Part shown: piece after piece, positions 6,053 to 47,916 of the stretch
Layout of the letters: each line of letters starts with the position of its first letter
Numbering within the stretch: position 1 is the stretch's first letter
Assembly: GCA_965242525.1 (NCBI GenBank)
Contig: OZ251459.1
Coordinates: 3,353,515-3,417,514 of the forward strand
From: an uncultured Candidatus Binatia bacterium
GTDB taxonomy: Bacteria; Desulfobacterota; Binatia; UBA9968; JAJDTQ01
Length of the DNA stretch: 64,000 nt
Direction: 5' to 3'
Translations under genes and position numbers: made by a program
Notes under the pieces: model-generated
What the model was told of the DNA's origin: nothing
Seen by the model: the letters and a program-made list of their open reading frames with translations, nothing else
The model's database searches: none

Positions 6053-8584
6053 ATGAACGAAGCCACAGCGCGCATCAAGATCAACAGACTGCTGGAAGCG
6101 GCCGGATGGCGGTTCTCCGACGAAGGAGACCATCGGGCCAACATCCGCCTCGAATCCGGCGTCACCATTGAACCGGCCGGTCTCGACGCCCTCGGAGACA
6201 ATTTCGAGAAAACCGCCCAAGGATTCATCGACTTCCTTTTGCTGGACGCCAAGGGATTCCCACTGATCGTTCTGGAGGCCAAGGCCGAGAACAAGAACCC
6301 GCTGGTAGGCAAGGAACAGGCGCGCAGGTACGCCCGCGCGCAGAACTGCCGTTTCGTGATCCTCTCCAACGGCAATCTGCACTACTTCTGGGATCTGGAA
6401 CGCGGCAGCCCATACATCATCACCACGTTCCCCAGGCCGGAGTCGGTAACCGGCTATCGGGAAGTAACGCCCGACCCGCAGCGCTTGGCGGAAGAACGGG
6501 TCAGCGACGACTACATTGTCCTGACCCAGCGCCCCAATTACGCGTCGGAAGCGGCTTGGAAGAGTGAAGCCGAACGCCCCATCTTCATCCGCGCCCATAA
6601 GCTGCGCTTTCTGCGTCCCTACCAACTGAATGCCGTCCTTGCCTTGCAACGCGCGGTCCGGGACGGCAACGACCGCTTTCTGTTCGAGATGGCTACCGGC
6701 ACGGGCAAGACGCTCACTGCAGCCGCGGTCATAAAGCTGTTCCTGCGCTCCCGCAACGCGCGCCGCGTGCTGTTCCTAGTGGACCGTCTGGAGTTGGAGG
6801 ATCAGACCCATAAGGTTTTCACCGCGTTGCTTTCCGTCGACTTCCAGACGGTCATCTACAAGGAGAAGCGCGACGATTGGCGGCGCGCCGAGATCGTCGT
6901 CAGCACGGTCCAATCCCTGCTGTTCAACAACAAGTACCAGCAGCTCTTCTCGCCCACGGATTTCGATCTGGTAATCTCCGACGAGGCGCATCGCTCCATC
7001 GGCGGTAACGCCCGGGCTGTGTTCGATTATTTCGTGGGCTACAAGCTCGGGCTCACCGCGACCCCGCGCGACTACCTGAAGGGTGCAGACCCCCAACGAG
7101 CCGCCAGTCATCCACGGGAGGCTGAGCGCCGGTTGCTGCTGGACACTTACCGTACCTTTGGCTGCGAGAGCGGACAGCCCACCTTTCGCTACTCGCTGTT
7201 GGACGGCGTGAAGGATGGCTACCTGATCAGCCCGACGGTGGTGGATGCGCGCACGGACGTGACCACCCGGCTCCTGTCCGAAGAAGGGTTCGTGGTCTCC
7301 TTCACCGACGAGACGGGCGACGACCGGGATGAGGCATACAGGCAGCGCGAGTTCGAGAAGCGTTTCTTCTCCGAAGCCACCAACCGCTTGTTCTGCAGGA
7401 CCTTCTTGGAGAACGCCTTGCGCGATCCGGTTAGCCGAGAGGTGGGCAAGTCCATCATCTTCGGAGTCAGCCAGAACCATGCCGCCAAGCTCGTCCATAT
7501 CTTCAACGCGATGGCCCATCGCATGTTCCCTGGCAAGTATCAGTCCGACTTCGCCGTGCAGGTGACCTCGCAGATACCGGACGCCCAGCCGTTTACCGTG
7601 AACTTCACCAACAACAACCTGCTGGGCTCGGGCAATTTCCTGCCCACGTACAGGAGCAGCAAGGCCCGTGTCTGTGTTACTGTAGGTATGATGACCACCG
7701 GGTACGACTGTACCGACGTCCTGAACCTTGGCATGTTTCGGCCCATTTTCTCGCCCACCGATTTCGTCCAGATCAAGGGCCGCGGCACCCGCAGGCACCG
7801 GTTCCTCGACCAACTCCACGATCCGGCGCTCGCAGAGAACGTCAGGCAGCCCGAAAAGACCGCCTTCAAGCTCTTTGACTTCTTCGCCAATTGTGAGTAC
7901 TTTGAGGAAGAATACGATTACGACCAGGTCATCGACCTGCCCAAAGCCGTCACGGACAACGGGCCAACCGACGGTGTTGTGGACGGGCCGCACACAGTGT
8001 TGGAAATATACGAGCATTCGGGTCCGGACGACTTGTCAATGGTGAAGGAAGAAACCATCGGCGTCGAGGGCATGAAGATCGACCGCATGTTCTTCGAGCG
8101 GTTCGAGGATACAGTGAAGGAGAATGGATTCATCGCCACGTGCGTCGAAGCCGGGGAGTGGGAGAAAGTGATCGAGTACGTCAACCGGGAAGTCTTCGAC
8201 AAGCCGGAGGAATACTACAGTTTGGACAAGCTTCGCAGAGCCGCGGCGGTGGACCGTCGCCTGACCCTGCGGGAGATCCTTGAAAAGGTCTTCGGCCTCA
8301 TCCCGCGCTTCAAGTCGAGGGACGAGTTGCTGGAGGAGGAGTTCGCCAAGTTCGTCGCCGATTACAAACCCAAAGAGGCGACGGCCATCCCCGCCCTCAA
8401 GACTTACTTCAAAGCGTACGCCACCAGTAACCAGATCCGCGACATCATCGAAAGCCGTAACTACACAGACCTCGCCACCAACCCGGCCTTTTCCACCCGG
8501 GACTTTCGCGCAGTGCCAGAGAGATACCGCGCCATCATCCCGAATTACATCAAGGACTACGTGCCACTGAACCAGTTCGCCTGA
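6053..8584 (+). CDS. hsdR: Type I restriction enzyme R subunit-like: N-terminal PD-(D/E)xK nuclease plus SF2 DEAD/DEAH motor, 843 aa.
   Basis: HSDR_N-type nuclease motif LLDAKGFPLIVLEAKAE. Helicase motifs LRPYQLNAV (Q), MATGTGKT (I), VISDEAHRS (II), LGLTATP (III) and QIKGRGTRR (VI). Confidence 0.8.
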   Translation: MNEATARIKINRLLEAAGWRFSDEGDHRANIRLESGVTIEPAGLDALGDNFEKTAQGFIDFLLLDAKGFPLIVLEAKAENKNPLVGKEQARRYARAQNCRFVILSNGNLHYFWDLERGSPYIITTFPRPESVTGYREVTPDPQRLAEERVSDDYIVLTQRPNYASEAAWKSEAERPIFIRAHKLRFLRPYQLNAVLALQRAVRDGNDRFLFEMATGTGKTLTAAAVIKLFLRSRNARRVLFLVDRLELEDQTHKVFTALLSVDFQTVIYKEKRDDWRRAEIVVSTVQSLLFNNKYQQLFSPTDFDLVISDEAHRSIGGNARAVFDYFVGYKLGLTATPRDYLKGADPQRAASHPREAERRLLLDTYRTFGCESGQPTFRYSLLDGVKDGYLISPTVVDARTDVTTRLLSEEGFVVSFTDETGDDRDEAYRQREFEKRFFSEATNRLFCRTFLENALRDPVSREVGKSIIFGVSQNHAAKLVHIFNAMAHRMFPGKYQSDFAVQVTSQIPDAQPFTVNFTNNNLLGSGNFLPTYRSSKARVCVTVGMMTTGYDCTDVLNLGMFRPIFSPTDFVQIKGRGTRRHRFLDQLHDPALAENVRQPEKTAFKLFDFFANCEYFEEEYDYDQVIDLPKAVTDNGPTDGVVDGPHTVLEIYEHSGPDDLSMVKEETIGVEGMKIDRMFFERFEDTVKENGFIATCVEAGEWEKVIEYVNREVFDKPEEYYSLDKLRRAAAVDRRLTLREILEKVFGLIPRFKSRDELLEEEFAKFVADYKPKEATAIPALKTYFKAYATSNQIRDIIESRNYTDLATNPAFSTRDFRAVPERYRAIIPNYIKDYVPLNQFA

Positions 8585-8603: not shown

Positions 8604-10451
8604 TTGCTCGACTCCACCACCAAACACCGTATTGACACCGCCCGTGATATCCTCGTGGGCAAGGTGCCTGACCCCAAGAGTCAGGTGGAGCAGATCACCA
8701 TCGCGCTCATCTATAAGTTCATGGACGATATGGACGCCGAAAGCGAGGAGTTGGGAGGACGGCGCAGGTTTTTTGCCAACAGGTTCGCCCGCTACGGCTG
8801 GACGAAGTTGATGCGCTCCGGCCTGGGGGGGCACGAAACCCTGAACCTCTATGCCGAAGCCATCACCCGTATGCCCGAGAACCCCGGCATTCCACCCCTG
8901 TTCCGCAGCATCTTTAACAATGCCTACCTGCCCTACCGCGACCCGGAGACCTTGCGCGCCTTCCTAAAGGTCATCAACGAGTTCACCTATGACCACTCGG
9001 AGCGGCTGGGAGACGCTTTCGAGTACCTGCTGTCCGTCATGGGTTCCCAGGGCGACGCTGGCCAGTTCCGCACCCCGCGCCACATCATCGACTTCATCGT
9101 CGCCATCATCGACCCGAAAAAGGATGAGACTATGCTCGATCCGGCGTGCGGTACCGGAGGTTTCCTCATCTCCTCTTACAAACACATCCTGAAGACCAAC
9201 ACGGACGAGGACGGGAACAGCACTCTCACGCCCGAAGACCGCCGCCGACTCGCCGTCAACTTCAAGGGCTACGATATCTCTCCCGACATGGTGCGCCTCT
9301 CCCTCGTGAATATGTACCTCCACGGCTTCGCCGACCCGCACATCTTGGAGTACGACACCCTCACCAGCCAGGAACACTGGAACGAGTACGCCGACGTCAT
9401 ACTGGCCAACCCCCCTTTCATGTCACCCAAGGGCGGCATCCGCCCACACAACCGGTTTTCGGTCCAGTCCAAGCGTAGCGAAGTCCTGTTCGTGGACTAC
9501 ATGGCCGAGCACTTGAACCCTACTGGCCGAGCCGGAATCATCGTACCCGAAGGCATCATCTTCCAGAGTCAAGGCGCACACACGAAATTGCGCCGGATGC
9601 TGGTAGAGGATTTCCTCGTAGCGGTCATTTCATTGCCAGCCGGCGTGTTCCAGCCCTATTCCGGCGTGAAGACCTCGATCCTGATCCTGGACAAGGCGCT
9701 GGCCAAACGGACAAACCGCATCGCTTTCTTCGGGGTGGAGAACGACGGCTACGATCTAGGAGCACAGCGACGACCGATCGAGGAGAACGACTTGCCACGC
9801 GTAACGGCCGAGATCGTAGAGTATCTGGGCCACTCGCGAACCGATAAATTCCTGAACGCTGCCGAACCGATACGCGCCGGGCAAGTGGCGGAGCCTAGGG
9901 GTACGTATACGACGGTCGAACCGTCCAGAGGCTTTCAACCTAATAGCGGACTCATCGTCGAGAAGGAACAAATCGCCACTCTTGGAGGCTATGGCTTGAA
10001 TGCGGTGCGTTATCAGGAAGGCGACACCCGCAAGAAGAAATCAAAGTGGCCACTTGTGAAAGTTAAGGATGTGTGCCAAGCTATTTTGGGTGGTGGCACT
10101 CCTTCTACGAAAAACGAAGAGTACTGGCAAGGGAAGATTCCTTGGATCACAAGTGCCGACATCGTAAATCTCACGACTGCGAGACCACGTCGATATATCA
10201 CGGAGAAAGCAATAAAGGAATCGGCCACCAACTTGATCCCCAAAGACAATGTGGTAGTTGTAACAAGAGTTGGCCTCGGGAAACTATTCAGGAACAGTTT
10301 TGATATATGTATTAGTCAAGACTCACATGGGTTGATCGTGAAAGATGGAGTCAATGCGGATTATCTGGTACAGATACTGAAAGACAAGGTGAAGGAATTC
10401 AAGAAAAGCAGTCAAGGTTCGACCATACAGGGAGTTACAAAAAGAGACTAG
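8604..10451 (+). CDS. hsdM: Type I R-M HsdM (N6-adenine methyltransferase) fused to a single HsdS-like target-recognition domain. Reading frame is interrupted at 10449.
   Basis: TTG start after a GAGGAGG RBS. HsdM_N region, motif I DPACGTGGFL, motif IV NPPF. The C-terminal ~200 aa (KVKDVCQAILGGGTPSTKNEEYWQGKIPWITSADI...) resembles an HsdS TRD. Confidence 0.8.
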   Translation: MLDSTTKHRIDTARDILVGKVPDPKSQVEQITIALIYKFMDDMDAESEELGGRRRFFANRFARYGWTKLMRSGLGGHETLNLYAEAITRMPENPGIPPLFRSIFNNAYLPYRDPETLRAFLKVINEFTYDHSERLGDAFEYLLSVMGSQGDAGQFRTPRHIIDFIVAIIDPKKDETMLDPACGTGGFLISSYKHILKTNTDEDGNSTLTPEDRRRLAVNFKGYDISPDMVRLSLVNMYLHGFADPHILEYDTLTSQEHWNEYADVILANPPFMSPKGGIRPHNRFSVQSKRSEVLFVDYMAEHLNPTGRAGIIVPEGIIFQSQGAHTKLRRMLVEDFLVAVISLPAGVFQPYSGVKTSILILDKALAKRTNRIAFFGVENDGYDLGAQRRPIEENDLPRVTAEIVEYLGHSRTDKFLNAAEPIRAGQVAEPRGTYTTVEPSRGFQPNSGLIVEKEQIATLGGYGLNAVRYQEGDTRKKKSKWPLVKVKDVCQAILGGGTPSTKNEEYWQGKIPWITSADIVNLTTARPRRYITEKAIKESATNLIPKDNVVVVTRVGLGKLFRNSFDICISQDSHGLIVKDGVNADYLVQILKDKVKEFKKSSQGSTIQGVTKRD

Positions 10452-10607
10452 CCGAAATTGAGATACCTCTTCCTCCGCCGATCGTACAACGAGAAATCGT
10501 AGAAGAGATAGAGAGGTGCCAAAAAGTTATAGACGAGGCATTAGAATTGGTAACGCAGATGAACAGCAAAATAGAGACAACCCTAACGCGAGTGTGGGAA
10601 TCATAGT
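10439..10607 (+). pseudogene. Frameshifted conserved C-terminal segment of HsdS (LAEIEIPLPPPIVQREIVEEIERCQKVIDEALELVTQMNSKIETTLTRVWES). An A5 tract at 10439-10443 separates the two frames.
   Basis: Frame 2 downstream of the TAG at 10449 encodes the canonical HsdS 'IPLPPLxEQ' conserved region. One extra A in the A5 run would fuse it in frame, giving ...STIQGVTKKRLAEIEIPLPP... Confidence 0.6.
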
Positions 10608-10610
10608 TTT

Positions 10611-12278
10611 ATGAGAGAGAATCAAATGTATTGGGATATTCCGCAAATTGTCGGCGAGCCGCTGCATATACCTATCACTGGCGGCGACCGGATTTTCATC
10701 GTAGGTCCCAACGGTTCGGGAAAATCAGCGTTGATTCAGCACTTTGTCTCGTTACATGGGTCTCAGAATCAGCCTCAGGAAATCCAACGTATTGCAGCGC
10801 ATAGGCAGACATGGCTTACTTCGGGAAGCATTGATGTTACACCGAAGAAACGCAGACAGTTTGATGAAATCTTTAAGACATATGAAACCGATCCTGCCTC
10901 ACGATGGATGGATAGGAGTCCGCACGAGAGACAGTCAGCGGTGCTCTTTGATTTGGTTGCGCAAGAGAATGATCGAGCCCGTCGCATTACTCGTCAAGTT
11001 GACGATGGAAAGGAGTGTGAAGCGAAACGAATCGCTGCTAGAACAACATCTCCTTTCGCTCGACTCAACGATCTATTACAATGTGGAATGTTGACAATCA
11101 CACTTGAAGATTCGCTTGGGGAAGAGATACTGGCTCGGCATCGAGGTACGGAAACCTCCTTCAGCATGGCGCAGATGTCGGATGGGGAACGAAATGCTGC
11201 TATTATTGCCGCTAATGTATTGACTGTGAAACCTGATACTATATTGTTAATCGATGAACCGGAGCGGCATTTGCACAGGTCGATTATTGAGCCTTTTCTT
11301 TCTGCCGTGTTTGAACAACGACAAGACTGTGCGTTCATCATTTCGACACATGAGCTCGCCCTGCCGATTGCCAATCCAAGAGCACAAGTTCTTATGGTTC
11401 GATCATGTAGATGGGGGGCGGATACTGCAGAAGCGTGGGATGCGCAACTTCTCAAAGCAAGTCCGGAACTACCGGAAGATCTGAAACGCTTGATCCTGGG
11501 TGCTCGAAGGAGAATTTTGTTTGTCGAGGGCACCTCAGGCAGCTTAGACCTACCACTTTATACTACTCTATTCCCGAAGGTCTCCGTGGTGTCGCAGGGG
11601 AGTTGTACTGATCTCCTAAGGGCCGTAAAAGGCTTGCGAGAGACTACAAACCTGCATCACGTCGAGGCATTTGGTCTTATTGACCGGGATAACCGCGGAG
11701 AGGATGAGGTTAAACAATTGTTTGATAATGGAGTGTTTGCTCTCGAAGTGTACTCAGTGGAAGCGCTTTACTATTCTCTGGACGCTATTGAAGCGGTGGC
11801 TCGTTGGCAAGCGAATTCATTCAGGTGCAGCGCCGATGAGATGATCGCGTCTGTGAAAGAGGAAGCATTGCGTGTCTTGGAGGAAAGCGATTTGGCAGAA
11901 AGAATGGCAGCACGACGAAGTGCCGGTCGGATACATGCTGAATTATTGTCACAAATGCCTGATTGGAAATACATCAGAGACCATAGGGGTAGCAGATTCA
12001 AAGTTTCCGTGGAGTCTCCGTACTCAGAGGAACTGGAGCATTTTCGCAAACTTGTTGCCGAAAAGAGATTGGATGAACTCGTCGCACGCTATCCGTTACG
12101 CGAGAGTCGTCTATTCAATACCATTGCCAACGCTTTGAAGTGTCGTTACAGAAGTGACTACGAGCAGATGGTGCTTTCCCGGCTTAGAGACGCCGAGAAT
12201 CTGGCTCAGAAGCTGAAACAACGCGTCGGCCCTCTCGCGACGGAGCTTGAGCGGGCTACCTCCCGGGAAGCAGGCTGA
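10611..12278 (+). CDS. ABC-type ATPase fused to a DUF4435/TOPRIM-like domain: an OLD-family or fused AriA-AriB (PARIS)-like defence protein.
   Basis: Walker A GPNGSGKS, signature-like MSDGER, Walker B/H ILLIDEPERHLH. C-terminal half has TOPRIM-type acidic motifs ILFVEGTSGSLD and FGLIDRDNRGEDE. About 44% GC against a ~69% background, and begins four nucleotides after the hsdS end. Confidence 0.65.
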   Translation: MRENQMYWDIPQIVGEPLHIPITGGDRIFIVGPNGSGKSALIQHFVSLHGSQNQPQEIQRIAAHRQTWLTSGSIDVTPKKRRQFDEIFKTYETDPASRWMDRSPHERQSAVLFDLVAQENDRARRITRQVDDGKECEAKRIAARTTSPFARLNDLLQCGMLTITLEDSLGEEILARHRGTETSFSMAQMSDGERNAAIIAANVLTVKPDTILLIDEPERHLHRSIIEPFLSAVFEQRQDCAFIISTHELALPIANPRAQVLMVRSCRWGADTAEAWDAQLLKASPELPEDLKRLILGARRRILFVEGTSGSLDLPLYTTLFPKVSVVSQGSCTDLLRAVKGLRETTNLHHVEAFGLIDRDNRGEDEVKQLFDNGVFALEVYSVEALYYSLDAIEAVARWQANSFRCSADEMIASVKEEALRVLEESDLAERMAARRSAGRIHAELLSQMPDWKYIRDHRGSRFKVSVESPYSEELEHFRKLVAEKRLDELVARYPLRESRLFNTIANALKCRYRSDYEQMVLSRLRDAENLAQKLKQRVGPLATELERATSREAG

Positions 12279-12368
12279 ATCAATGGGCTCTTCCGGCTTT
12301 CGTGTGGGTAGGGATAGGGAGGAAAGGGGGGGTGAGACAGGGTAGAGGGAGCGGCAAGGGAGGGAGCA

Positions 12369-13263: not shown

Positions 13264-14652
13264 TCACCTGAGCACGCTCATCACCGCACGTGCGTCCACC
13301 ACGTGGACGCCGGCGCGGGTGCGCGGAGCAGCGCCTCCCGGGACGAACAGCGCATGGCAGACTTCGGCGTTCCCGACATGGGGCAGGTTTCGGAGGGCGG
13401 CAAGGGCGCCGGCTCCGGACGGGGCGGCCGGCTTCACGGACCACTTGACTTCGCCCACCAGCAGCCGCCGGCCGTCCACCGAGAACGCGACGACGTCCAG
13501 TTCCGGCTCATGGCCCCGCCAGTACCTTTGCGCGGGCTCCCACGGGCCGAGTTCCGCCAGCCTGGTATCGGAGCGGTGCAGCAGGGGTACGGCCATGCGG
13601 CACAACTCTTCCCAGGCCAGGGACTCCAGGCCGGGGCAGTGCCGGTTCCAGTAGCGCAACCGCGTCTCCCGAGGCGCCGCGGCAAGGGCGGCCCGGTGGG
13701 GGGCGACCACCCGGAACCACAGCCGGAGAAAGGGGTCGTCGATCCGGTAGAGGCTTCGCTTGCCCGACTTCGGGTCGCTCCCGAAGGGCGTCTCGCGGCG
13801 CACGAACCCCATCTCCATCAGGGACGCCAGGGGCTTCGACAAGCCGGATGCGGGTTTGCCCAGACGGCTTGCGACCTCGCTGACCCGATGCGCGCCGTTG
13901 CCGATGACGTCCAGCACCGGGCGTAACGCAGTAGCCGGGGGCGTTTCCTCCCGCAGCAACCGGTCGGGCTCTCCATGCAGCGGTCCTGCAGGGTCGAGGA
14001 CCAGGGCGTCCACCGCAGCGTCGCAATCGTCTCCGAAGGGTTCGGCCAGCTCCCAATAGCGGGGCATCCCGCCCCACAGCGCATACGCGGAGACCAGGGC
14101 GCGGAGGTCGTCGAAGGGAAAGACCCGGGCAAGGTGTCCCGGTTGCAGCGGGCGCACGGCAAAGGCTTCCGCGGCCCGGCCGTACAGGGGCGCGGCGGCG
14201 TCGAGGATGGCGCTGCGCATCATGTGCTGGCTCGACCCGCAGACCACCAGCTTCAGCCGACGCTCCGGGCGGTCCAGCCAGTTCTGCAGGACGCCGGCCA
14301 GAGCAGGGTCCGCGTCGAGGAGGTAGGGCAGTTCGTCGAGTACGAACGGCCCCTGCCAGCCGGCCCGCTGGGCCTCCGCGTCGAGCCGCGTCAGGAACGA
14401 GCGCCAGTCCGGGTATTCGACGTCGGCAAAGCCGGGGAACCGTTCGGCGACCGCTCCGGCCAGGTAGCGCCGCTGCACCGGAGGCGCGGACTGGTCGGCC
14501 ACCGCGTAGAGGCCGTCGTGACGCCGGGTCCACTCGATGAGCAGGCGTGACTTGCCGACCCTGCGGCGCCCCCGGACGACGGCGAAGGCCCCGGGCCGCA
14601 AGAGCACGCGGTCCAGTCGGCGCATCTCTTCCGCGCGGTCGAGGAACTGCAT
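13264..14652 (-). CDS. Archaeal-type AAA+ ATPase with a DUF234 C-terminal domain (an 'ATP-binding protein' common in defence islands).
   Basis: MQFLDRAEEMRRLDRVLL...VVRGRRRVGKSRLL (Walker A); DUF234-like C-terminus. The true ATG is at 14652; the track's 14745 start is a high-GC extension. Confidence 0.6.
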   Translation of the reverse strand: MQFLDRAEEMRRLDRVLLRPGAFAVVRGRRRVGKSRLLIEWTRRHDGLYAVADQSAPPVQRRYLAGAVAERFPGFADVEYPDWRSFLTRLDAEAQRAGWQGPFVLDELPYLLDADPALAGVLQNWLDRPERRLKLVVCGSSQHMMRSAILDAAAPLYGRAAEAFAVRPLQPGHLARVFPFDDLRALVSAYALWGGMPRYWELAEPFGDDCDAAVDALVLDPAGPLHGEPDRLLREETPPATALRPVLDVIGNGAHRVSEVASRLGKPASGLSKPLASLMEMGFVRRETPFGSDPKSGKRSLYRIDDPFLRLWFRVVAPHRAALAAAPRETRLRYWNRHCPGLESLAWEELCRMAVPLLHRSDTRLAELGPWEPAQRYWRGHEPELDVVAFSVDGRRLLVGEVKWSVKPAAPSGAGALAALRNLPHVGNAEVCHALFVPGGAAPRTRAGVHVVDARAVMSVLR

Positions 14653-14791
14653 GGAACTATTATGTGGGTCGGTATTATGCCTGTCAACATAACCTCTGGA
14701 TACGCGCCGGCGGCAGCGAACTCCGCTCGACTTGGGGATTGACACGCCGCCGCCTCATCGCCTACCTTTGTCGCCGAACGCCAATCGTCCC

Positions 14792-24069: not shown

Positions 24070-24145
24070 CTGTCTCAAGGGTAAAGCATGCCCTAACCGA
24101 TGTCAATACCCGACAGTTTATTTTTGTCGAACTCGACATTAAAGG

Positions 24146-24496
24146 ATGCTTGCTCTGTCTGAAATCTTTCAACAACGTTTAAGGGCTGCTAGGGGTACAC
24201 GCGAATGGAGCCAAAGCGATTTGGCTAAACGCGCGGGTTTGCCGCCTAGCTCGATTGCCCATTTTGAAACCGGACCGCGCAAGCCGTCTTTCGAAACCCT
24301 GCGTCGCTTGGCTAATGCCCTAGAAGTTACGACCGATTATCTTCTAGGGAGAGTCGAAGATCCAGGTCTTGCCGAATCAGGAGATCCGCTCTTCCGTGAT
24401 ATTGGCAACCTGACCGGCAGTGATCGCGACCTAGCGAGAGACTTCCTCAAAATGTTGACGGAACGCAGTTCGGCTAAGCAAGGGAGGATCAAATGA
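24146..24496 (+). CDS. XRE-family helix-turn-helix transcriptional regulator.
   Basis: HTH_XRE signature WSQSDLAKRAGLPPSSIAHFETG; AAAGGA RBS; about 50% GC. Confidence 0.8.
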   Translation: MLALSEIFQQRLRAARGTREWSQSDLAKRAGLPPSSIAHFETGPRKPSFETLRRLANALEVTTDYLLGRVEDPGLAESGDPLFRDIGNLTGSDRDLARDFLKMLTERSSAKQGRIK

Positions 24497-24708
24497 ATGT
24501 GCCCTTGGTTTAGAGTTAGCCAAAAGGATGGGGGGAGCTATCCAGGGTTTTGAAATTCAACCTTGCCCGTCACCTCTCTTGAAATGGCAGGACTCCACGA
24601 TATCGTCTGGAGCCGAAACTCGGCATCGCCACAGGGGTGTCAGGAATGCTGTCTGTACTGGGAAGTCATTTGCTGAGCAGATCGTTACCGCTATAACGGA
24701 GTCATCAA

Positions 24709-25578
24709 ATGGCTACGGGAAAAAGCTCGACTGTCTATCGCGCCCTTAGCTTGGGTGCGGGAGCGCAGAGTTCTGTTTTAGCACTCCTGCTATCTCGATC
24801 CGACCCCCATTTAGCTAAGCTTGGGTATCACAAGCCCAATGCCGCCATCTTCGCTGATACCGGATGGGAACCTGAGTATGTGTATCGTCATTTGGACTGG
24901 CTTGAGGGACAGCTTCGGTATCCGCTGATCCGAGTGTCCGAAGGCAATCTGAGGACTAACCTTAAACAGGCCCGCACTGTGTCAGGTCATCGTTTTGTTG
25001 ATGTCCCCTTATTCATAGTCGATGGGGACGGCAGGAAAGGGATGTTACGCCGACAGTGCACCACTCACTACAAAATCAGGCCGATTTATCGACAGATCCG
25101 AAAGCTTGCCGGAGGACAGCCTAGTCGACCGTTCCCCAAGGACACCCATGCTGAAATATGGCTCGGGATTTCGCTGGACGAGGTCGGCCGCATGAAGCCG
25201 AGCAAGGAACCGTGGGTAGAACATCGATGGCCGCTGGTGGACATCGGCATGACACGTCAAGATTGTATCGAATGGTTTCAGTCTGAGTATCCAGACCGCC
25301 ATCTACCTCGGTCGGCCTGCGTCATTTGCCCGTATCGTTCAGACAAACATTGGTTGGAATTGAAACGACATGAACCTACTAGCTACAAAGAGGCTGTGCA
25401 ATTCGACCGCTGGCTCCGAAGAAGCACCGAGACACCTCTACGCAAACTGCTGAACGGTCGCCCATATCTGCATTCGGCTCGGCGACCCCTCGCCAGCGTC
25501 ATGAAGGAACGGAAGACGGAAGACGTGGGCGATATAAATAACTTCAACAATGAATGCGAGGGTCTCTGTGGTGTCTGA
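24709..25578 (+). CDS. PAPS reductase / PP-loop ATP-pyrophosphatase-like protein (DndC/CysH-like fold). First gene of the 4-gene cassette.
   Basis: N-terminal degenerate PP-loop YRALSLGAGAQSSVLALL. C-terminal Cys-rich segments CTTHYKIRP and CVICPYRSDKHW. GGAG RBS. Confidence 0.5.
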   Translation: MATGKSSTVYRALSLGAGAQSSVLALLLSRSDPHLAKLGYHKPNAAIFADTGWEPEYVYRHLDWLEGQLRYPLIRVSEGNLRTNLKQARTVSGHRFVDVPLFIVDGDGRKGMLRRQCTTHYKIRPIYRQIRKLAGGQPSRPFPKDTHAEIWLGISLDEVGRMKPSKEPWVEHRWPLVDIGMTRQDCIEWFQSEYPDRHLPRSACVICPYRSDKHWLELKRHEPTSYKEAVQFDRWLRRSTETPLRKLLNGRPYLHSARRPLASVMKERKTEDVGDINNFNNECEGLCGV

Positions 25579-26818
25579 AACAGAGGCTGAAACAATCAGG
25601 CCAAGATATTCCTTATATCCCTACCAGCGTCAGGTGCTGGCCGACGTTCTTCGTGCCCTATCGTTTTCCGAACGTCGTGTGCTTGCTCATCTTCCTACTG
25701 GCGCCGGGAAAACCAGAATCGCAGCCCATGCTGCTTGCCATATGCTCAACGATCACGACACAGACAAGTCTCTTGTAATTTGGTTAGCGGCCACAGAGGA
25801 ACTCTGTGAGCAAGCAGCAGAGCAGCTTTCAAGGGCATGGATTTATCTGGGACGACGAGATGCCTGCATCCATCGACATTGGGGAACAAAGTCGGCGGAA
25901 CTACGGGACCTCCATTCGGGGTTTTTGGTGACAGGTCTTGCTAAACTTCGCTCCGCCGCTTTTTCAGATAACACTCTCCTTGCGCATCTTGCACACCGCG
26001 CTGCTGCGGTCATTTTTGACGAAGCCCATCAGGCAATTGCAGCAACCTACTCCTTTATTACAGAGCAACTATGCAGTGTAAAGCCACCTCTTCTTGGTCT
26101 TACAGCCACGCCGGGACGAACCGCGAATCTCACTGACGCAGATTATCTCCTTGCTAACATGTTCAATAATAACAAGGTTTCCATAGACCCAAGGGGACAC
26201 GGCAACCCTGTTACCTATTTGATCCAGAATCGCTACCTAGCCGATCCGCGATTTGTGTCTGTCAGATTCGATTCCGCCGCGTCGATTATTGACCCTTTAC
26301 CCGGTACAGACTACCGTACAGAAGACCTTGACGATTTGGGCCGCAGCCGCGAGCGCACGCGCAAGATTGTAGATCTCGCCGTGGCCGCAGCGGAGCATCA
26401 CCCTCGTACAATCATGTTTTGCCCTTCCGTTGAGAGTGTTTTGGAATGCAACAAACTCCTTCAAGCCAGGTCGGTCAAGACGGCTGTAGTCACGGCTCAC
26501 ACACCAAAGGAAGAACGTCGTGAAATCATCGAGACGTTCAGAAGTAACGACAGAGAGCACATGCTAATACTTAATTATGGCGTGCTCACTGCAGGTTTCG
26601 ATGCCCCTCGTACCCGCTGCGTCATCATCGCACGCCCGACCACTTCGCTGGTACTTTACTCGCAAATGGTCGGTCGAGCTATGCGTGGCCCGATGGCCGG
26701 GGGAAATTCCAAGGCCGAAATCTTTACGGTTACTGACACCAACCTTCCAGGGTTTGGTTCTGTGGTTGACGCCTTTACAAATTGGGAGGATCTATGGACG
26801 ACCAACTCGCCGAATTAG
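25550..26818 (+). CDS. SF2 DEAD/DEAH-box helicase.
   Basis: Motifs I HLPTGAGKT, II FDEAHQ, III LTATP and VI QMVGRAMRG. Overlaps the preceding gene by 29 nt. Confidence 0.8.
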   Translation: MNARVSVVSETEAETIRPRYSLYPYQRQVLADVLRALSFSERRVLAHLPTGAGKTRIAAHAACHMLNDHDTDKSLVIWLAATEELCEQAAEQLSRAWIYLGRRDACIHRHWGTKSAELRDLHSGFLVTGLAKLRSAAFSDNTLLAHLAHRAAAVIFDEAHQAIAATYSFITEQLCSVKPPLLGLTATPGRTANLTDADYLLANMFNNNKVSIDPRGHGNPVTYLIQNRYLADPRFVSVRFDSAASIIDPLPGTDYRTEDLDDLGRSRERTRKIVDLAVAAAEHHPRTIMFCPSVESVLECNKLLQARSVKTAVVTAHTPKEERREIIETFRSNDREHMLILNYGVLTAGFDAPRTRCVIIARPTTSLVLYSQMVGRAMRGPMAGGNSKAEIFTVTDTNLPGFGSVVDAFTNWEDLWTTNSPN

Positions 26819-28665
26819 AAAACGCAGACCGCAGCCTTTTTCCGAGCGACTATACAGTACAGGCTCTTCGAGACAGTCGGTATCACAATACCGCCTATGC
26901 CATTGCTGAACTCATTGATAACTCGATAGAGGCAAATGCTGCAAGAATCGATTTTCTTTGCATGGAAGAACTACAAAGCGTAGGCCCTCAGACACGGAGA
27001 CGAATCTCAGGAGTTGCCATACTGGACGACGGTGAGGGAATGGAAGTAAGGACACTCCTTGAGGCTCTTAGATTTGGGGGAGGAACACGACACAACTCGG
27101 ATAGAGGAATCGGCAAATATGGCATGGGTCTCCCCACATCCTCGATGTCTCAATGCAAGAGAGTTGACGTATGGACTTGGCAGGAAGGGGTGGACTCAAC
27201 TTGGCATTCCTATATCGATGCGGACGATATTGCTAACGGGAACCACAAGGTGCCTGTTCCTGATCGACAACAAATACCCGAGACATGGCGAATAGCCGGA
27301 AGCGATGAAATCTATGGACATCGCACCGGTACTCTTGTCGTGTGGAGCAAGCTAGACAAGGTTCAGTGGAAAACTAGCCGTGCGATCATCGACAATACCT
27401 CCCGCGAGGTAGGTCGTATTCATAGGCACTGGATTCATGCGGAAATGACCAAAATACGAGTCGTTTCTTTCCCTGCTAACCGGCCTACAGAGCCAGATAC
27501 GGGTCCCTCCTATATTGTAGCAAACGATCCTCTTTACTTGCTGAAGCCCACTTCTACTCCTCACCCTTGGGATGATAAAGAGATGTTTGTAGAGTGGTGT
27601 CCCCCAAGAGAATACCCGTGTCAAGTTGAGGGTCGAGAACACAGGATTTGGGTAAAATATTCTATCGTGAAACCAGAGGCATTGAGGACGGAGAGAGTTA
27701 CACAAAACCCAGGCAACGAAGCCCACGGGAAACACGCTAGACACAACATCGGGGTATCTGTTGTACGAGAAGATAGGGAAATTGTTCTTGAAGATGCTTT
27801 TCTCAGAGAGGGCGGCAGTACAGACCTTCCTCAGAATCGCTGGTGGGGTTGCGAAGTACTATTCTCTCGAGGTTGCGATGAGTTGTTTGGTGTAGATCAT
27901 AATAAGCAAATGGTGGCAAATTTTACGCAGGCAGCGAAAACTCTTACCCGTGACGATCGTGACCCTCATGTGATCCTAGAGGAGATGGGGATTGATGAAG
28001 AGGACATCATTCACAGGATAGTGGGAGACATCCGAAACCAAACGCGGGCCATGATGGATGCCATTCGGCAGATGTTTGAGCAGCGTCGAAAGTCGGTTGA
28101 CGATGGTGGGCGTACCAGTAGGCATAGGAACCCAGAAGATAAAGCTATAAGGATCGCTACTGACGCGGATCGGGACGCTATAGCAGCCGGTGAAGAGCAG
28201 CCGACTAAGACTGATATAGATCGTGAGCAAATTCCGCCTCAAGAACGACAGGAGCGCCTCGTAGAACAGTTCATTGAAGCCGGACAACCCGGCCAAGACG
28301 CGGAGAAGCGCGCGAAGCTGCTGATACAGGAAGATTTGTCCTACCAGTTCAGCTCGGAACAGGGAGACGGATTTCAGATTTTCAAGGTACGTTCTTATCA
28401 AGGAATTTTGCACATCAAGCTCAACACGGAGCATCCAATCTATGACCTTCTCAAACATATTGAAAATGATCTTCCGGAGAATGGAGATGAGGCGGATCCC
28501 AGGTTTCAGGCCAGTGTTGCGATCAGATTATTGCTATCTTCCTGGGCTCGGATGGAAGACCAGACAGAGGCACAGCAGGAACGAGCACGTATTCAAGATA
28601 CTGCCATGAACTGGGGGCGTCAAGTAGACAAGGCTATCCGCCAACTGCGTGACAGAAGCCGATGA
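26794..28665 (+). CDS. GHKL (Bergerat-fold, MORC/HATPase_c_3-like) ATPase.
   Basis: Bergerat motifs ELIDNSIEANA (N box), ILDDGEGM (G1) and GKYGMGLP (G2). The long C-terminal region is charged and helical. ATG at 26794 follows GGGAGG; TTG at 26782 is an alternative start. Confidence 0.75.
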   Translation: MDDQLAELENADRSLFPSDYTVQALRDSRYHNTAYAIAELIDNSIEANAARIDFLCMEELQSVGPQTRRRISGVAILDDGEGMEVRTLLEALRFGGGTRHNSDRGIGKYGMGLPTSSMSQCKRVDVWTWQEGVDSTWHSYIDADDIANGNHKVPVPDRQQIPETWRIAGSDEIYGHRTGTLVVWSKLDKVQWKTSRAIIDNTSREVGRIHRHWIHAEMTKIRVVSFPANRPTEPDTGPSYIVANDPLYLLKPTSTPHPWDDKEMFVEWCPPREYPCQVEGREHRIWVKYSIVKPEALRTERVTQNPGNEAHGKHARHNIGVSVVREDREIVLEDAFLREGGSTDLPQNRWWGCEVLFSRGCDELFGVDHNKQMVANFTQAAKTLTRDDRDPHVILEEMGIDEEDIIHRIVGDIRNQTRAMMDAIRQMFEQRRKSVDDGGRTSRHRNPEDKAIRIATDADRDAIAAGEEQPTKTDIDREQIPPQERQERLVEQFIEAGQPGQDAEKRAKLLIQEDLSYQFSSEQGDGFQIFKVRSYQGILHIKLNTEHPIYDLLKHIENDLPENGDEADPRFQASVAIRLLLSSWARMEDQTEAQQERARIQDTAMNWGRQVDKAIRQLRDRSR

Positions 28666-29519
28666 CTATGTACGGTTGGCCGGGAGACTTGTTGGCCGGC
28701 GTTTGTTCACGTGCCCAATATTTGATTATCGCAGCGCCATACATCAAGTCCGACGCTCTTGTCAGGGTTCTAGCTGACGTTAATCCAGGAGCCTCTCTTG
28801 TCTGCATCACGAGATGGAATCCGCATGACCTCGTTACAGGTGCATCCGATGTGGAATGTCGTACCATTGTCATTAAGCGAGAAGGTTTCTTTAGACTTCA
28901 TCCGTCACTCCATGCGAAATACTATCGAGCAGACAATGTGGTTTTAATTGGATCCGCTAATTTGACATCTTCCGCATTAGGCTGGACACGTCAACCTAAC
29001 CTGGAGATTCTTTGTCGTCCGGAAGATGATTTCGACGCTGACGCCTTTCAACAGTCTCTGTTCGATGGATCGAGAGAAATTGATGATGAAGAGTTCAAAT
29101 CTTGGAAATCCATTGCAGATATGACACTTCAAGGTAGGAGAAGAGTGGTTGACGAACCTCCTAGACTTGATACCTGGAGACCGGCGACTCGCGACCCCAG
29201 ACACTTGGAGTTCGCGTATCAGGGGAAAGACGATGAAATTGCTTCGTTCGACGAGCAACGAGCGGCACAGCGTGACATGCGGACTCTTCGGATTCCTCCA
29301 GGTTTGACCAGCGCGCAGGTTCGAACCTGGATCTCAGGTTGTCTTTTTGCCGCTTCCTTCACCAACACCATACTCCGGCTGCATAATATGGAAAACTTAG
29401 ATGTATCTCGTTCACTTGCAGACATCTACAAACTCAGCGTCACTGATGCACGAAGGGATATGGAAACCGTCCAAAATTGGCTTTCATTCCTTGCTCCACA
29501 GACTTTGACTCGAACTTAA
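28662..29519 (+). CDS. Phospholipase D-family (single HKD) nuclease, Nuc/BfiI-like.
   Basis: HKD motif HAKYYRADNVVLIGSANLT. The ATGA overlaps the GHKL gene's stop. Confidence 0.75.
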   Translation: MTMYGWPGDLLAGVCSRAQYLIIAAPYIKSDALVRVLADVNPGASLVCITRWNPHDLVTGASDVECRTIVIKREGFFRLHPSLHAKYYRADNVVLIGSANLTSSALGWTRQPNLEILCRPEDDFDADAFQQSLFDGSREIDDEEFKSWKSIADMTLQGRRRVVDEPPRLDTWRPATRDPRHLEFAYQGKDDEIASFDEQRAAQRDMRTLRIPPGLTSAQVRTWISGCLFAASFTNTILRLHNMENLDVSRSLADIYKLSVTDARRDMETVQNWLSFLAPQTLTRT

Positions 29520-29596
29520 AATCGATCCTCTTCCGATTCTCCTCGTGCACGGTCCGCATGTCCACTCCTATCGAAGGGGCTCATACCAAGAGATCC

Positions 29597-30493
29597 TCAC
29601 AGGACCCAACCGACGGAGAAGAGCGCGCTGTACAACAGGAGCAGCTTGGCCGTGTAAGCGAGTAACGGGTTCAACGAAGGCCCCTCGGAGACGAAGATCC
29701 TGCGGAAGGCCGGCAGCGCCGCGACCAGGACCGCGGCCGCGGCCGCGGACCAGGGACGACGGCCCGAAGCGAGGTAGAGGGCGAGGGGCAGCAGGCAGGC
29801 GGCCACCACCGCGGCCACGTATTCGGCGCGGACGAAGCCGCGTCCGAAACGCACGGCCAGGGTCCGCTTGCCGGTGCGCCGGTCCTCGTCCGCGTCCCGG
29901 AGGTTGTTGACCGCGAGGATGGCCACGGACAGCAGGCCCGGCGCCAGCCCGGCCGCCGCCACCGTGGCGTTGACGCTCAGGGTCTGCACGTAATAGGTCC
30001 CGGCCACCGCCACCGGTCCGAAGAACACCAGCACGAAGAGGTCGCCGAGCCCCAGGTAGCCCAGCGGCCGCGGTCCGCCGGTGTAGAGCAGCCCCGCGGC
30101 CACGGAGGACAGGCCGATGAGGGCCGCGGGCCATCCGCCGCGCCACACGAGGTAGAGGCCGCCCAGCAGGGTGAGGGCCAGCACCGCGGCGATGCCGCGC
30201 TTCATGGTCCCGGGGGCCAAGAGCCCGGCCTGGGTGACCCGCAACGGCCCCTGGCGGGACTCGGTGTCCGCGCCCTTCTCGAAGTCGAAGAGGTCGTTGG
30301 CGAAGTTGGTGGCCACCTGGATCAGCACCGCGCAGGCCAGCGCCGCCAGCGCCGAAGGCGCGTGGAACCCGCCGTCGTCCACGGCCATGGCGGCGCCCAC
30401 CACCACCGGGGCCACCGAAGCCCAGAGGGTCTTGGGTCTCGCCGCCAGGAACCAGACCGCGGCGGGGCCCGGCGGCTGGGCGCGGGTGCTCAA
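29597..30493 (-). CDS. menA: 1,4-dihydroxy-2-naphthoate polyprenyltransferase (UbiA family).
   Basis: UbiA-type motif NDLFDFEKGAD; nine predicted TM segments; lies in the men context. Confidence 0.8.
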   Translation of the reverse strand: MSTRAQPPGPAAVWFLAARPKTLWASVAPVVVGAAMAVDDGGFHAPSALAALACAVLIQVATNFANDLFDFEKGADTESRQGPLRVTQAGLLAPGTMKRGIAAVLALTLLGGLYLVWRGGWPAALIGLSSVAAGLLYTGGPRPLGYLGLGDLFVLVFFGPVAVAGTYYVQTLSVNATVAAAGLAPGLLSVAILAVNNLRDADEDRRTGKRTLAVRFGRGFVRAEYVAAVVAACLLPLALYLASGRRPWSAAAAAVLVAALPAFRRIFVSEGPSLNPLLAYTAKLLLLYSALFSVGWVL

Positions 30494-43224: not shown

Positions 43225-43230
43225 AGAACC

Positions 43231-44040
43231 ATGACCGATCCCGTATCCCAAGGCCCGGGGGCGGCGCCCTCCGATGGCCTGCGTCTGGCCGGGAGGGAGT
43301 ACCGCTCCCGGTTGATCGTCGGCACGGGCAAGTACCGCGACTTCGAGGAAACCCGCAAGGCCATCGAGGCTTCCGGGGCCGAGATCGTGACGGTGGCGGT
43401 CCGGCGCGTCAACGTGGTCGATCTGGACCGGGAGAACCTGCTCGACTACCTGGATCCCGCCAAGTTCACCATCCTCCCCAACACCGCGGGCTGCCATACC
43501 CCGGACGAAGCCGTGCGGACCTGCCGCCTGGCCCGGGAAGCGGGGGTCGGCAGCATGATCAAGCTCGAAGTCATCGGCGACGACAGGACGCTCTTCCCCG
43601 ACACCCCGGGCACCCTCGAAGCCGCGCGGCTGCTGGTGGAGGACGGCTTTACGGTGCTGCCGTACATCAGCGACGACGTGGTCACCGCCCGGAAGCTCGA
43701 AGACATGGGCTGCGCCGCGGTGATGCCCCTGGCCGCGCCCATCGGCTCCGGCCTGGGTATCCGCAACCCCTACAACATCCGCATCATCCAGGAGAACGTC
43801 TCCATCCCGGTCATCGTGGATGCGGGGGTGGGGACCGCCTCCGACGCCGCCATCGTCATGGAGATGGGCTGCGACGGCGTGCTCATGAACACGGCCATCG
43901 CCGGGGCCCGGGACCCGGTTCTCATGGCCGACGCCATGAAGCTCGCGGTGGAGGCCGGGCGCAAGGCGTTCCTGGCCGGGCGCATCCCCAGGAAGCTCTA
44001 CGCCACCGCGTCGAGTCCCATCGAAGGACTCCTCGCCTGA
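43231..44040 (+). CDS. thiG: Thiazole synthase.
   Basis: RLIVGTGKY...KLEVIGD...[14 protein letters not shown] is the ThiG TIM-barrel signature. Confidence 0.9.
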
Positions 44041-44073
44041 CCGGCGTCCCGCGGGGAACGTCGGGCCGGACCC

Positions 44074-44745
44074 TTGAGAGCCGTCGATTTCGACCTGTAC
44101 CTCGTCACCGACCGCAAGGCCACCGCGGGCCGGGACCTGCTGTGGGTGCTGGAGCAGGCGTTGGAGGGCGGAGTCCGGGCGGTGCAACTGCGGGAAAAGG
44201 ACCTGGGCGGGCGGGCGCTGCTGGAGCTCGCGCGAGAAGTGAAGCGGCTGTGCGACGGCTACGGCGCCGAGCTCTTCGTCAACGACCGCGTGGACGTGGC
44301 TTTGGCCGCGGACGCCGCGGGCGTGCACCTGGCCGCGGACTCCATGCCCGCGGCGACGGCCCGGGCGCTCCTCGGCGCGGACCGCAAGATCGGCGTGTCC
44401 ACCCACTCCCCCGCGGAGGTCCGCGCCGCGGCCCGGGCGGGCGCAGACTTCGTGGTCTTCGGACCGGTGTTCGCCACCCCGTCCAAGACGCGGTTCGGCG
44501 ACCCCCAGGGACCCGCGGCCCTCGGGGCCGTCACGGACGGCGCGCAACTGCCGGTCTTCGCCATCGGCGGCGTCACCGAGCGCAACCTGCCCGAGATCAA
44601 GGCCGCCGGCACGGACCGGGTCGCCCTGGTCTCCGCGGTATCGGAGGCGCCCGACCCCAAGGCCGCGGCCCGGCGCCTCCTGGCGGCGTTGCGGGTCCGG
44701 GACCCGGCCAAGGAAACTCGGAACAACGATTCCCGTTCGCCCTAA
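44074..44745 (+). CDS. thiE: Thiamine-phosphate synthase.
   Basis: DLYLVTD...VQLREKD...GADFVVFGPVFATPSK...FAIGGV. Confidence 0.85.
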   Translation: MRAVDFDLYLVTDRKATAGRDLLWVLEQALEGGVRAVQLREKDLGGRALLELAREVKRLCDGYGAELFVNDRVDVALAADAAGVHLAADSMPAATARALLGADRKIGVSTHSPAEVRAAARAGADFVVFGPVFATPSKTRFGDPQGPAALGAVTDGAQLPVFAIGGVTERNLPEIKAAGTDRVALVSAVSEAPDPKAAARRLLAALRVRDPAKETRNNDSRSP

Positions 44746-45863: not shown

Positions 45864-45939
<76 letters not shown>

Positions 45940-46219: not shown

Positions 46220-47916
46220 TCAACCACGGTTCGATTTTTCGTCGGCAAGCCCGTATGTCTCCCGGGCCTGCCGTCGTGACACGTATCCGTCCTCGACGTC
46301 CTGGCGCACGAGTTCCGGGGGACGTTCCCGGGGGTTGCCGTAACCGCCGCCTCCGCTGCGGAAGACGGCGAGTCTGGCGCCGGCCCGCAGCGACCGGGTT
46401 TCCAGGATATCGACTTCGGACGGCTCTTCGCCCGGTTGCTGGATCGTGGTCCTGGAGGTGGGCGGGCCTCCGCCGCCGTTCAGGCCCCATGACGCCTGTC
46501 GATGGTTTGCCGAGCGCACCGTGAGCATGCAGTCGGACAGGAACTCGTACTCGCGGACGAACCCGGCGCCGCCGCGCCAGCGCCCGGGGCCGGCCGAGTC
46601 CGGCCAGATCTCGTAACGGCGGACGGTAACGGGATATTCCGTCTCCAGGATCTCCACCGGCGTGCCGGGGGCGAAATGGTTGACCGGCATCACGATGGAC
46701 GCTCCGTCATGGTCGCGGGTGCCGCCCAGCGAGGTGATCAGGATCTCGTACTGGACGGTGGGCCGGCCCGAACGGCCTTCCCCGTAGCCGACGGCAATGG
46801 CGCCGGCGCCCAGGCCGGAGGGGGCCACCGCCCGGCGGGGGTTGAAGCGTCCGACCGCGGCGAGGACGCAGTTATAGACCAAGTGGGACGTGGGAAAGTA
46901 GTGGTTGACGGTTGCCGGGAAACGGGGGCTCAGCACGAGCCCCGGCGGCATCTCGAACTCGACGGCCTCGAACGCGCCCGCGTTCATGGGGATGCTCGGG
47001 TCCGACGCCGCCAGGACCGCTTGCATGGAGACCGCCCGAGCCGTTACCCCCGTCGTGTTCACGGGTCCGGGGGCCTGGGGGTCGCTGCCGGAGAAGTCGA
47101 GGGTCAACCGCTCCCCGGCCTTGACGGCCCGGACATGCACCCGCACTGGCCTGGACCGGTCCGCGCCGTCGTGGTCCAGGAACCCTTCCGCCTCGAACTC
47201 CCCGTCCGGCCATGAGGCGATCTCGCTGCGGACCCGGTTCGTCGTGCGCGTCAGCAGTTCCTCGACAGCGCCGAGCAGGGTGTCCGCGCCGTATTCGCGC
47301 AGCAGCGCCTGGAACCGGCTGGCCCCGAGCCTCGTGGCCCCCACCTGTCCGCGCAGGTCGCCGAGCACCACGTCCGGAATGCGGCTGTTGTTGCGAAGGA
47401 TCGCCTCCACCTCGGGCTGTACTCCCTCGGACGTGGCGAACCGCACCGGCGGCAGCAGGATCCCGTCGTGGAAGATCTCGCGCGCGGCGGCACCGCTCGA
47501 CCCCGGCACAAGGCCGCCGACGTCGGCCTTGTGGGCCACGCTGACGCCGAAAGCCACCACCCTGCCCTCGTGGAAAGCCGGCGTCGCCACGACCATGTCG
47601 GGCACATGGCTGTTCCCCGCCTTGTAGGGATCGTTGGAAACGAACGAATCCCCTTCGCTCATGTCCGCCGCCGGATAGCGTTCCAGGACGCCGGCCACCG
47701 ACTGCGAATACAGCAGGGAATGGTATTGGAGGCCTCCGCCCACCATGATTACCCGGCCGTCGCGGTCGGTCAGCCCGGCGGTGCCGTCCTGGGACTCGCG
47801 CAGGATCGGCGAGTAGCCGCTGTGGAACAGCGCGTGCGCCATGGACGCGGTGACCTCCCGCAGCCGGCTCAGCACGACCTCGATGGTGATGGGATCCAGG
47901 CTCATGACGCCCTCTC
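46220..47916 (-). CDS. hyuB: Hydantoinase B / 5-oxoprolinase-family subunit.
   Basis: MSLDPITIEVVLSRL... Hydantoinase_B family throughout. ATG at 47916; track ORF 46220..49408 is a run-on through hyuA antisense frames. Confidence 0.8.

Follow-up and report, generated by a model that had tools for sequence, protein, structure and literature searches.

In canonical Type I restriction-modification (R-M) systems, restriction, modification and specificity are provided by three separate subunits (R2M2S1), and in a full HsdS specificity subunit two conserved regions form an antiparallel coiled coil (1yf2). Genes of such systems can be phase-variable by means of mononucleotide tracts in hsdS or hsdM, with G[12] in Salmonella enterica serovar India and the G[n] hsdS of Mannheimia haemolytica as examples; a REBASE survey of phase-variable hsd genes used tracts of at least 9 bases as its criterion, and the shortest tract cited as still varying is G7 (Atack et al. 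2019, PMC7383803). A literature search for characterised HsdM-HsdS fusions returned none; the "hsdMS" found there denotes two adjacent genes (P. aeruginosa PA2735 and PA2734). Here, we analysed 64,000 nucleotides of DNA (the whole stretch is referred to as the window) from an uncultured Candidatus Binatia bacterium (contig OZ251459.1, positions 3,353,515 to 3,417,514), in which an hsdR-like gene is followed by a gene for an HsdM-type methylase fused to an HsdS-type specificity domain (the M-S gene), and the latter is cut short by a one-base frameshift. We suggest, with about even confidence, that a single A was genuinely and recently deleted from an A6 run, leaving A5, in a Type I-like R + M-S operon that had been acquired horizontally. 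The frameshift is an ordinary one, an annotation issue that involves no new mechanism.

The M-S gene fusion and its out-of-frame end

The interrupted gene consists of the following parts, given in coordinates of the window.

8604-10451, + strand: truncated M-S fusion open reading frame (ORF) with a TTG start, 615 amino acids (aa), ending in ...SQGSTIQGVTKRD before the stop (from the translation)
10439-10443, + strand: A5 run, the likeliest site of a one-base deletion from A6 to A5 (from homologue comparison)
10449-10451, + strand: premature stop TAG in frame 0 (from the sequence)
10448-10607, + strand: -1 frame remnant of 52 codons (10448-10604) with the conserved HsdS C-terminal helix and the original stop TAG at 10605-10607 (from the translation)

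As judged from its sequence, the gene at 8604-10451 encodes an N6-adenine methylase that continues into one target-recognition domain of the HsdS type. The 615-aa product, which is identical to the database protein P0001, matches Pfam N6_Mtase over residues 133-407 (173 bits) and Methylase_S over residues 480-613, where the match breaks off at position 126 of the 168 profile positions; in PADLOC, the N-terminal 475 residues match MTase_I (5e-95) and residues 459-612 match a Type I specificity subunit. The methylase half has the features of HsdM, that is, of a gamma-class N6-adenine methylase with an S-adenosylmethionine motif (DPACGTGGF) and NPPF, and it is matched by HsdM chains in the PDB at 1e-40 to 1e-11 (5ybb_A 1e-40; EcoKI M 3e-30). 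Solved HsdS chains match the specificity half, and the recognition domain together with the out-of-frame tail matches each half of HsdS. A Type I specificity module consists of a recognition domain and a conserved helical region; frame 0 lacks the latter, and the complete module appears after a one-base repair. The HsdM-HsdS fusion proposed by an earlier, sequence-only reading of this DNA is thus upheld by the two Pfam domains and by the homologues, which are fused as well.

The 18 nucleotides at 10434-10451 read GTT ACA AAA AGA GAC TAG. The -1 frame starts at CTA 10448 and reads LAEIEIPLPPPIVQREIVEEIERCQKVIDEALELVTQMNSKIETTLTRVWES, while the remaining two frames of this stretch contain stops; shuffles at the composition of the tail give a chance of 3-4% for an open frame of 52 codons. 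With the tail joined to the ORF, the Methylase_S match grows from profile positions 4-126 of 168 (64.2 bits) to 4-167 of 168 (94.3 bits), a gain of 30 bits for which the tail supplies positions 127-167. Once repaired, the recognition domain with its tail can be aligned to either half of 1yf2, the HsdS of M. jannaschii, and the match continues through the conserved helical region of each half, with residues 228-412 of 1yf2 aligned to the repaired module; the repaired protein of 667 aa is colinear to its very end with 13 single-domain homologues (73-78% identity). The tail also retains the family-invariant residues I643, I657 and W665. An AlphaFold model of the repaired protein has a helix at residues 626-666 (predicted local distance difference test, pLDDT, 79-91) as its sole confident element; with a mean pLDDT of 35 and an alignment of 14 sequences, the model is unreliable outside this C-terminal helix. 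Because of the profile gain, the alignment to 1yf2, the colinearity with homologues, the predicted helix and the low chance of such an open frame, we conclude from these comparisons that the tail is the true missing end of the M-S gene. The end of frame 0, its continuation in the -1 frame, the stop and the coordinates of the A5 run had all been given correctly in the sequence-only reading, and its claim that a one-base frameshift truncates the protein just before the conserved C-terminal HsdS helix is borne out by the profile match, whose end moves from position 126 to position 167 of 168 once the tail is added, and by the 1yf2 alignment. Independent translation of the 52-codon tail was rejected, as no ATG, GTG or TTG with a ribosome-binding site was found at its start.

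Like the canonical Type I systems (1yf2; T. tengcongensis 5ybb; EcoR124I/II 7bst; EcoKI M 2y7c), the locus combines an HsdM match, a match to an HsdS half including the helix and an HsdR-like gene upstream. Unlike them, it encodes M and S in one polypeptide, with one recognition domain and one helix, and its R protein scores below the EcoAI-family cut-off. Because M and S are fused, here and in 120 of the 120 closest proteins, the system departs from the three-subunit composition. By analogy, the single-domain M-S protein presumably acts on a symmetric site as a homodimer.

Frame 0 tracks the homologues up to the invariant K613 and the -1 frame does so from the invariant L616, and because both residues are invariant the indel is strictly bounded to 10440-10448. 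To place it more closely, we took a census of the dipeptide x-x in the motif G[VIL][TS]K-x-x-L, of which the 120 closest proteins contain 120 instances: RQ occurs 49 times, KQ 45 times, GQ 12 times and KR 4 times, along with a few others, and RD, RE and RR are absent. Lengthening the run by one A (AAA AAG AGA) gives GVTKKRLAEIEIPLPP and is the sole single-base repair that yields a dipeptide found in homologues (KR), in line with the earlier proposal that one more A in A5 restores a homologue-like protein. The resulting KKRL is found in two database proteins, P0031 and P0004 (there in its second domain); P0004 also contains the exact string GVTKKRLAEIEI, and the related locus L002 has an in-frame ACA AAA AAG (A6) at the equivalent position. 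The alternative repair GVTKRDLAEIEI, in which the base would have been lost after GAC, was ruled out, with RD or RE in 0 of 120 instances vs KR in 4 of 120. On these sequence comparisons, loss of one A from an A6 run is the most parsimonious placement, short of proven.

Lesions in a widespread family

The R + M-S pair is widespread, with more than 589 matching stretches in many phyla among GTDB species representatives, and the best 80 of these stretches served as family loci. In 78 of them, the M-S gene is preceded on its own strand by a gene for an HsdR homologue, and 69-70 of the 80 encode an uninterrupted M-S protein with a ...RVWGE-type tail. The 120 closest proteins fall mostly into a one-domain class of ~650-680 aa (31 of 120), whose members end in a single conserved helix, and a two-domain class of ~820-870 aa (86 of 120). 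Of the short proteins among these 120, P0001 alone has no conserved helix entry motif of any kind. Neither these proteins nor the best 80 loci include a homologue that is split at the frameshift site of the window; the protein database has no relative above 76% identity, and scanning metagenome contigs twice for exact DNA matches gave nothing. In the search for sister strains, exact look-ups of P0001 and of the protein encoded downstream (AriAB) likewise turned up no record, the protein cluster consists of a single member, and the best 80 GTDB loci do not include the genome of the window.

Clear lesions elsewhere in the M-S gene are present in 7 of ~78 species-representative loci (~9%), as follows.

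In-frame stop codons: L007, L018, L025 and L074
Frameshifts: L043 and L061
Insertion sequence (IS) insertion, IS3-like: L066

The stop in L007 (6801-6803) is a TAA where SQGST would have its Gln, and it precedes the position of the window's frameshift by 10 codons; two of the seven disrupted loci lie on contigs with names in the style of short-read assemblers. Like these pseudogenes, the M-S gene of the window carries a single lesion in a conserved, acquired R + M-S operon; unlike in them, the lesion is at another position and the remaining sequence is undecayed. Loss of the specificity function is presumably tolerated in such operons because restriction and modification would be silenced together, and with a disruption rate of ~9% in the family one further broken copy is unremarkable. 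The locus thereby adds an example of frequent inactivation in a widespread family of R + M-S fusions. For annotation, the 615-aa protein P0001 is to be flagged as frameshifted, and a methylation motif is expected only if sequencing reads show A6.

As a separate observation on this family, the recognition domain (GGTPSTKNExYWxGDIPWITSADIV...) is highly identical in homologues from many phyla, which is unusual, given that such domains normally diversify.

Origin of the frameshift

In our model, one A was lost from the Lys-Lys/Arg codons ACA AAA AAG AGA. The frame shifts after K613 and reaches TAG three codons on, leaving a protein whose single HsdS half-domain has lost its C-terminal helix of 52 residues. 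In a single-domain M-S protein this helix would have to associate with its counterpart in a second protomer and so mimic the antiparallel coiled coil of a full HsdS; with the helix lost, the (M-S)2 recognition complex should fail to assemble. Without this complex methylation would be lost, and restriction would be lost along with it because HsdR is expected to depend on the M-S complex. The suggestion in the sequence-only reading that the R-M system would probably be OFF in this copy is thus a reasonable one. Joint loss of both activities would be harmless to the cell, which fits the lesion rate in the family, and the short A run would be the most mutable spot of the codons concerned and no evolved switch. 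The lesion looks recent: the motifs and lengths of the R and M parts and of the adjacent AriAB gene (a fused AriA-AriB of PARIS type, described below) are intact, and the tail carries no further lesions. The ~36 other ORFs scanned in the window have essentially complete Pfam domain coverage, with no other frameshift detected among them. The window contains 184 homopolymers of at least 5 bases, 34 of them of 6-7 bases, and the T6, G7 and C6 runs within the M-S gene are all in frame, as are the longer runs in the genes checked. Since all other motifs and the ~36 genes look intact, the lesion is either a recent real mutation or a single consensus error.

The sequence-only reading had named both of these, inactivation by mutation and an error of sequencing, as its alternatives, and they are the best supported readings. 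If the error is the explanation, the organism has A6 and an intact M-S gene for the 667-aa protein, and the deposited sequence dropped one A; we regard this as a serious possibility that falls short of an even chance. Several points favour it and thus weigh against a real deletion. The host is probably of Binatia type and its 4.15 Mb contig probably a long-read metagenome-assembled genome (MAG), with ThiG closest to proteins of Binatia and "Deltaproteobacteria" MAGs, and an under-call of one base in a homopolymer is the classic error of long-read MAG assemblies; by our rough estimate, one indel in 64 kb is within the range for such assemblies. The tail, the R gene, the M motifs and AriAB are all perfectly intact, and a fully undecayed tail is equally expected from a sequence error. 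On the other side, no second frameshift was detected among the ~36 other ORFs scanned in the window, which has 34 runs of 6-7 bases, and the lesions in the family include nonsense codons and an IS, which cannot arise as homopolymer errors. We made a rough weighting of our own in which the family lesion rate multiplied by the share of frameshifts is set against errors at one per 64-300 kb in a 2-kb gene; it puts the real lesion at about even and the error clearly below that, with the rest spread over slow phase variation, a functional truncated protein and recoding. We therefore state a preference for a real, recent lesion over a homopolymer consensus error.

The remaining explanations would give the A5 allele a function. 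Homopolymer phase variation, as put forward in the sequence-only reading, would make the A tract a contingency locus that slips at a useful rate between A5 (OFF) and A6 (ON) and switches restriction and methylation together. The frameshift does lie in a homopolymer of the specificity part, where phase-variable hsdS tracts are known and where a mononucleotide-run frameshift likewise truncates the specificity polypeptide (PMC7383803), and the OFF allele is otherwise undecayed. However, at A5/A6 the tract is far below the 9-base criterion and also below G7, and orthologues do not preserve it: at nine homologous sites the Lys, Arg and Gly codons vary (ACA AAA AAA CGG, ACA AAA AAG CAG, ACG AAG AAA CGA, ACG AAA AGA CAG, ACC AAG AAA CAA, ACT AAA GGA CAA and others, with AAG AAG also used), and only two of them, in L002 and L001, have A6 or A7, both in frame. 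The A run is an accident of Lys codons. In addition, the lesions in the family are scattered over nonsense codons, an IS and frameshifts, none recurrent at the A run, and the truncation here takes away the sole conserved helix and so, unlike in phase-variable hsdS, leaves no functional half of domain plus helix. The likeness to homopolymer hsdS phase variation is thus only superficial, as the tract is too short and unconserved, and we consider this claim of the sequence-only reading unlikely to hold. Recombinational switching by inverted hsdS modules was likewise rejected, as a search of 5-13.5 kb for tandem repeats, inverted hsdS modules or inverted hsdS copies found only short, chance-level repeats. 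Very unlikely, in our view, is a function of the 615-aa protein as it stands, such as that of a methylase independent of the C-terminal helix. It keeps the methylase motifs and nearly the entire recognition domain, and truncated HsdS proteins can be active (PMC7383803); yet the active ones keep one conserved helical region, and the 615-aa protein keeps none, stands alone in this among the short proteins of the 120 closest and belongs to a family in which the tail is conserved in the intact 69-70 of the best 80 loci. Least credible of all is recoding, whereby -1 ribosomal frameshifting or transcriptional slippage on A5 would produce some full-length M-S protein beside the truncated one. Like programmed -1 frameshifting of the dnaX/IS type, slipping back by one base within an A-rich sequence would bring the tail into frame, tRNA-Lys on AAA (10440-10442) could re-pair perfectly at AAA (10439-10441), and a Shine-Dalgarno (SD)-like AGGGAG lies at 10429-10434. 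Unlike in the dnaX/IS type, there is no canonical heptamer, stimulatory structure or conserved split in homologues: the zero frame ACA AAA AGA presents the heptamer A AAA AGA, which differs from X XXY YYZ; the fold of 10444-10540 predicts no downstream RNA structure (z -0.48); and the homologues are single-frame through the site, with the disrupted ones carrying other lesions elsewhere. The AGGGAG is only 4 nucleotides (nt) upstream and merely encodes the conserved Gln-Gly; judging by dnaX and prfB, an SD-like spacing as short as 4 nt favours +1 and not -1 shifts. An A5 run is also too short for efficient transcriptional slippage. It is tempting to speculate that the A5 allele is nevertheless alive, either because low-level -1 slippage supplies a small, fixed fraction of full-length M-S protein alongside a helix-less excess, or because the run acts as a slow A5/A6 contingency switch, but we hold this to be highly improbable. 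If slippage were real, R-M activity would be tuned, along with the downstream PARIS gene through lost coupling at 10605-10611; if reads were a mixture of A5 and A6, homopolymer switching would gain a case with an unusually short tract, in a lineage that is environmental and not pathogenic, and nothing points there.

Neighbouring genes and other features of the window

The M-S gene is flanked by two genes of the same strand.

6053-8584, + strand: hsdR-like restriction subunit, 843 aa, apparently intact (Pfam ResIII, DEAD, HSDR_N)
10611-12278, + strand: fused AriA-AriB, a PARIS-type ABC ATPase plus DUF4435, 555 aa (PADLOC, Pfam)

The upstream gene has the composition of a Type I R subunit, a PD-(D/E)xK nuclease at the N-terminus and a superfamily 2 (SF2) helicase/translocase motor, with a D...EAK nuclease motif, GTGKT and DEAH in its translation. 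Its product matches PADLOC REase_I (6e-56) and scores 212 bits against the NCBIfam EcoAI/FtnUII-family R model, under the 550-bit cut-off, and it aligns over residues 3-843 (76-79% identity) to homologues encoded upstream of M-S genes. The downstream gene matches PADLOC AriAB PDLC02982 (3e-53, residues 180-535) as well as Pfam AAA_21, ABC_tran and DUF4435; the two components of PARIS, an AriA ABC-type ATPase and an AriB effector of the DUF4435/TOPRIM-like kind, are thus both predicted here, as a fusion. Its ATG lies 4 nt past the original M-S stop, and as the premature stop is 160 nt upstream of AriAB, any translational coupling between the two genes would be abolished. The order M-S then AriAB recurs in one of the best 80 related loci, L003 (a Nitrospirales MAG), in which the AriAB homologue at 7496-9114 matches in two frames (query 2-302 and 300-546) and appears to be frameshifted too.

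The R + M-S block at ~5.5-13 kb has a guanine-plus-cytosine (GC) content of 46-61% in a host of ~70% GC and is a horizontally acquired island. GC also falls within the M-S gene, from ~0.59 over the methylase to 0.46-0.51 over the recognition domain and tail and on into AriAB (9500-12300), a step that suggests a mosaic origin. At the edge of the R-M island, 13267-14754 on the - strand encodes an ATPase_2 + DUF234 protein that matches the PADLOC candidate defence family PDC-S27 (2e-24). A second low-GC island (~50% GC vs 70% GC in the host) at 24143-29907 on the + strand carries six co-oriented genes, as follows.

Gene 1, + strand: HTH_3 regulator
Gene 2, + strand: SspD-like (PADLOC 2e-14)
Gene 3, + strand: ResIII/DEAD helicase (PbeA-like)
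Gene 4, + strand: HATPase_c_3 (MzaB-like)
Gene 5, + strand: PLD-like nuclease (DrmC-like)
Gene 6, + strand: ORF of 133 aa without assignment

This region is a candidate composite defence island that fits no single known system. Elsewhere in the window, ARAGORN called a tRNA-Ala(GGC) at 30308-30382 (- strand), inside an ORF of the UbiA family, and, at 46752-46833 (- strand), a tRNA-Asn of 82 nt whose anticodon, ATT, is odd; Rfam, at its gathering threshold, confirms only a tRNA-Thr(CGT) at 45864-45936, and the two ARAGORN calls are probably false positives. Finally, thiG and thiE at 43225-44742 (+ strand) are direct neighbours that share one reading frame, with a lone stop codon at 44038-44040 between them; because both Pfam domains are complete, this arrangement is normal tight packing and no lesion.

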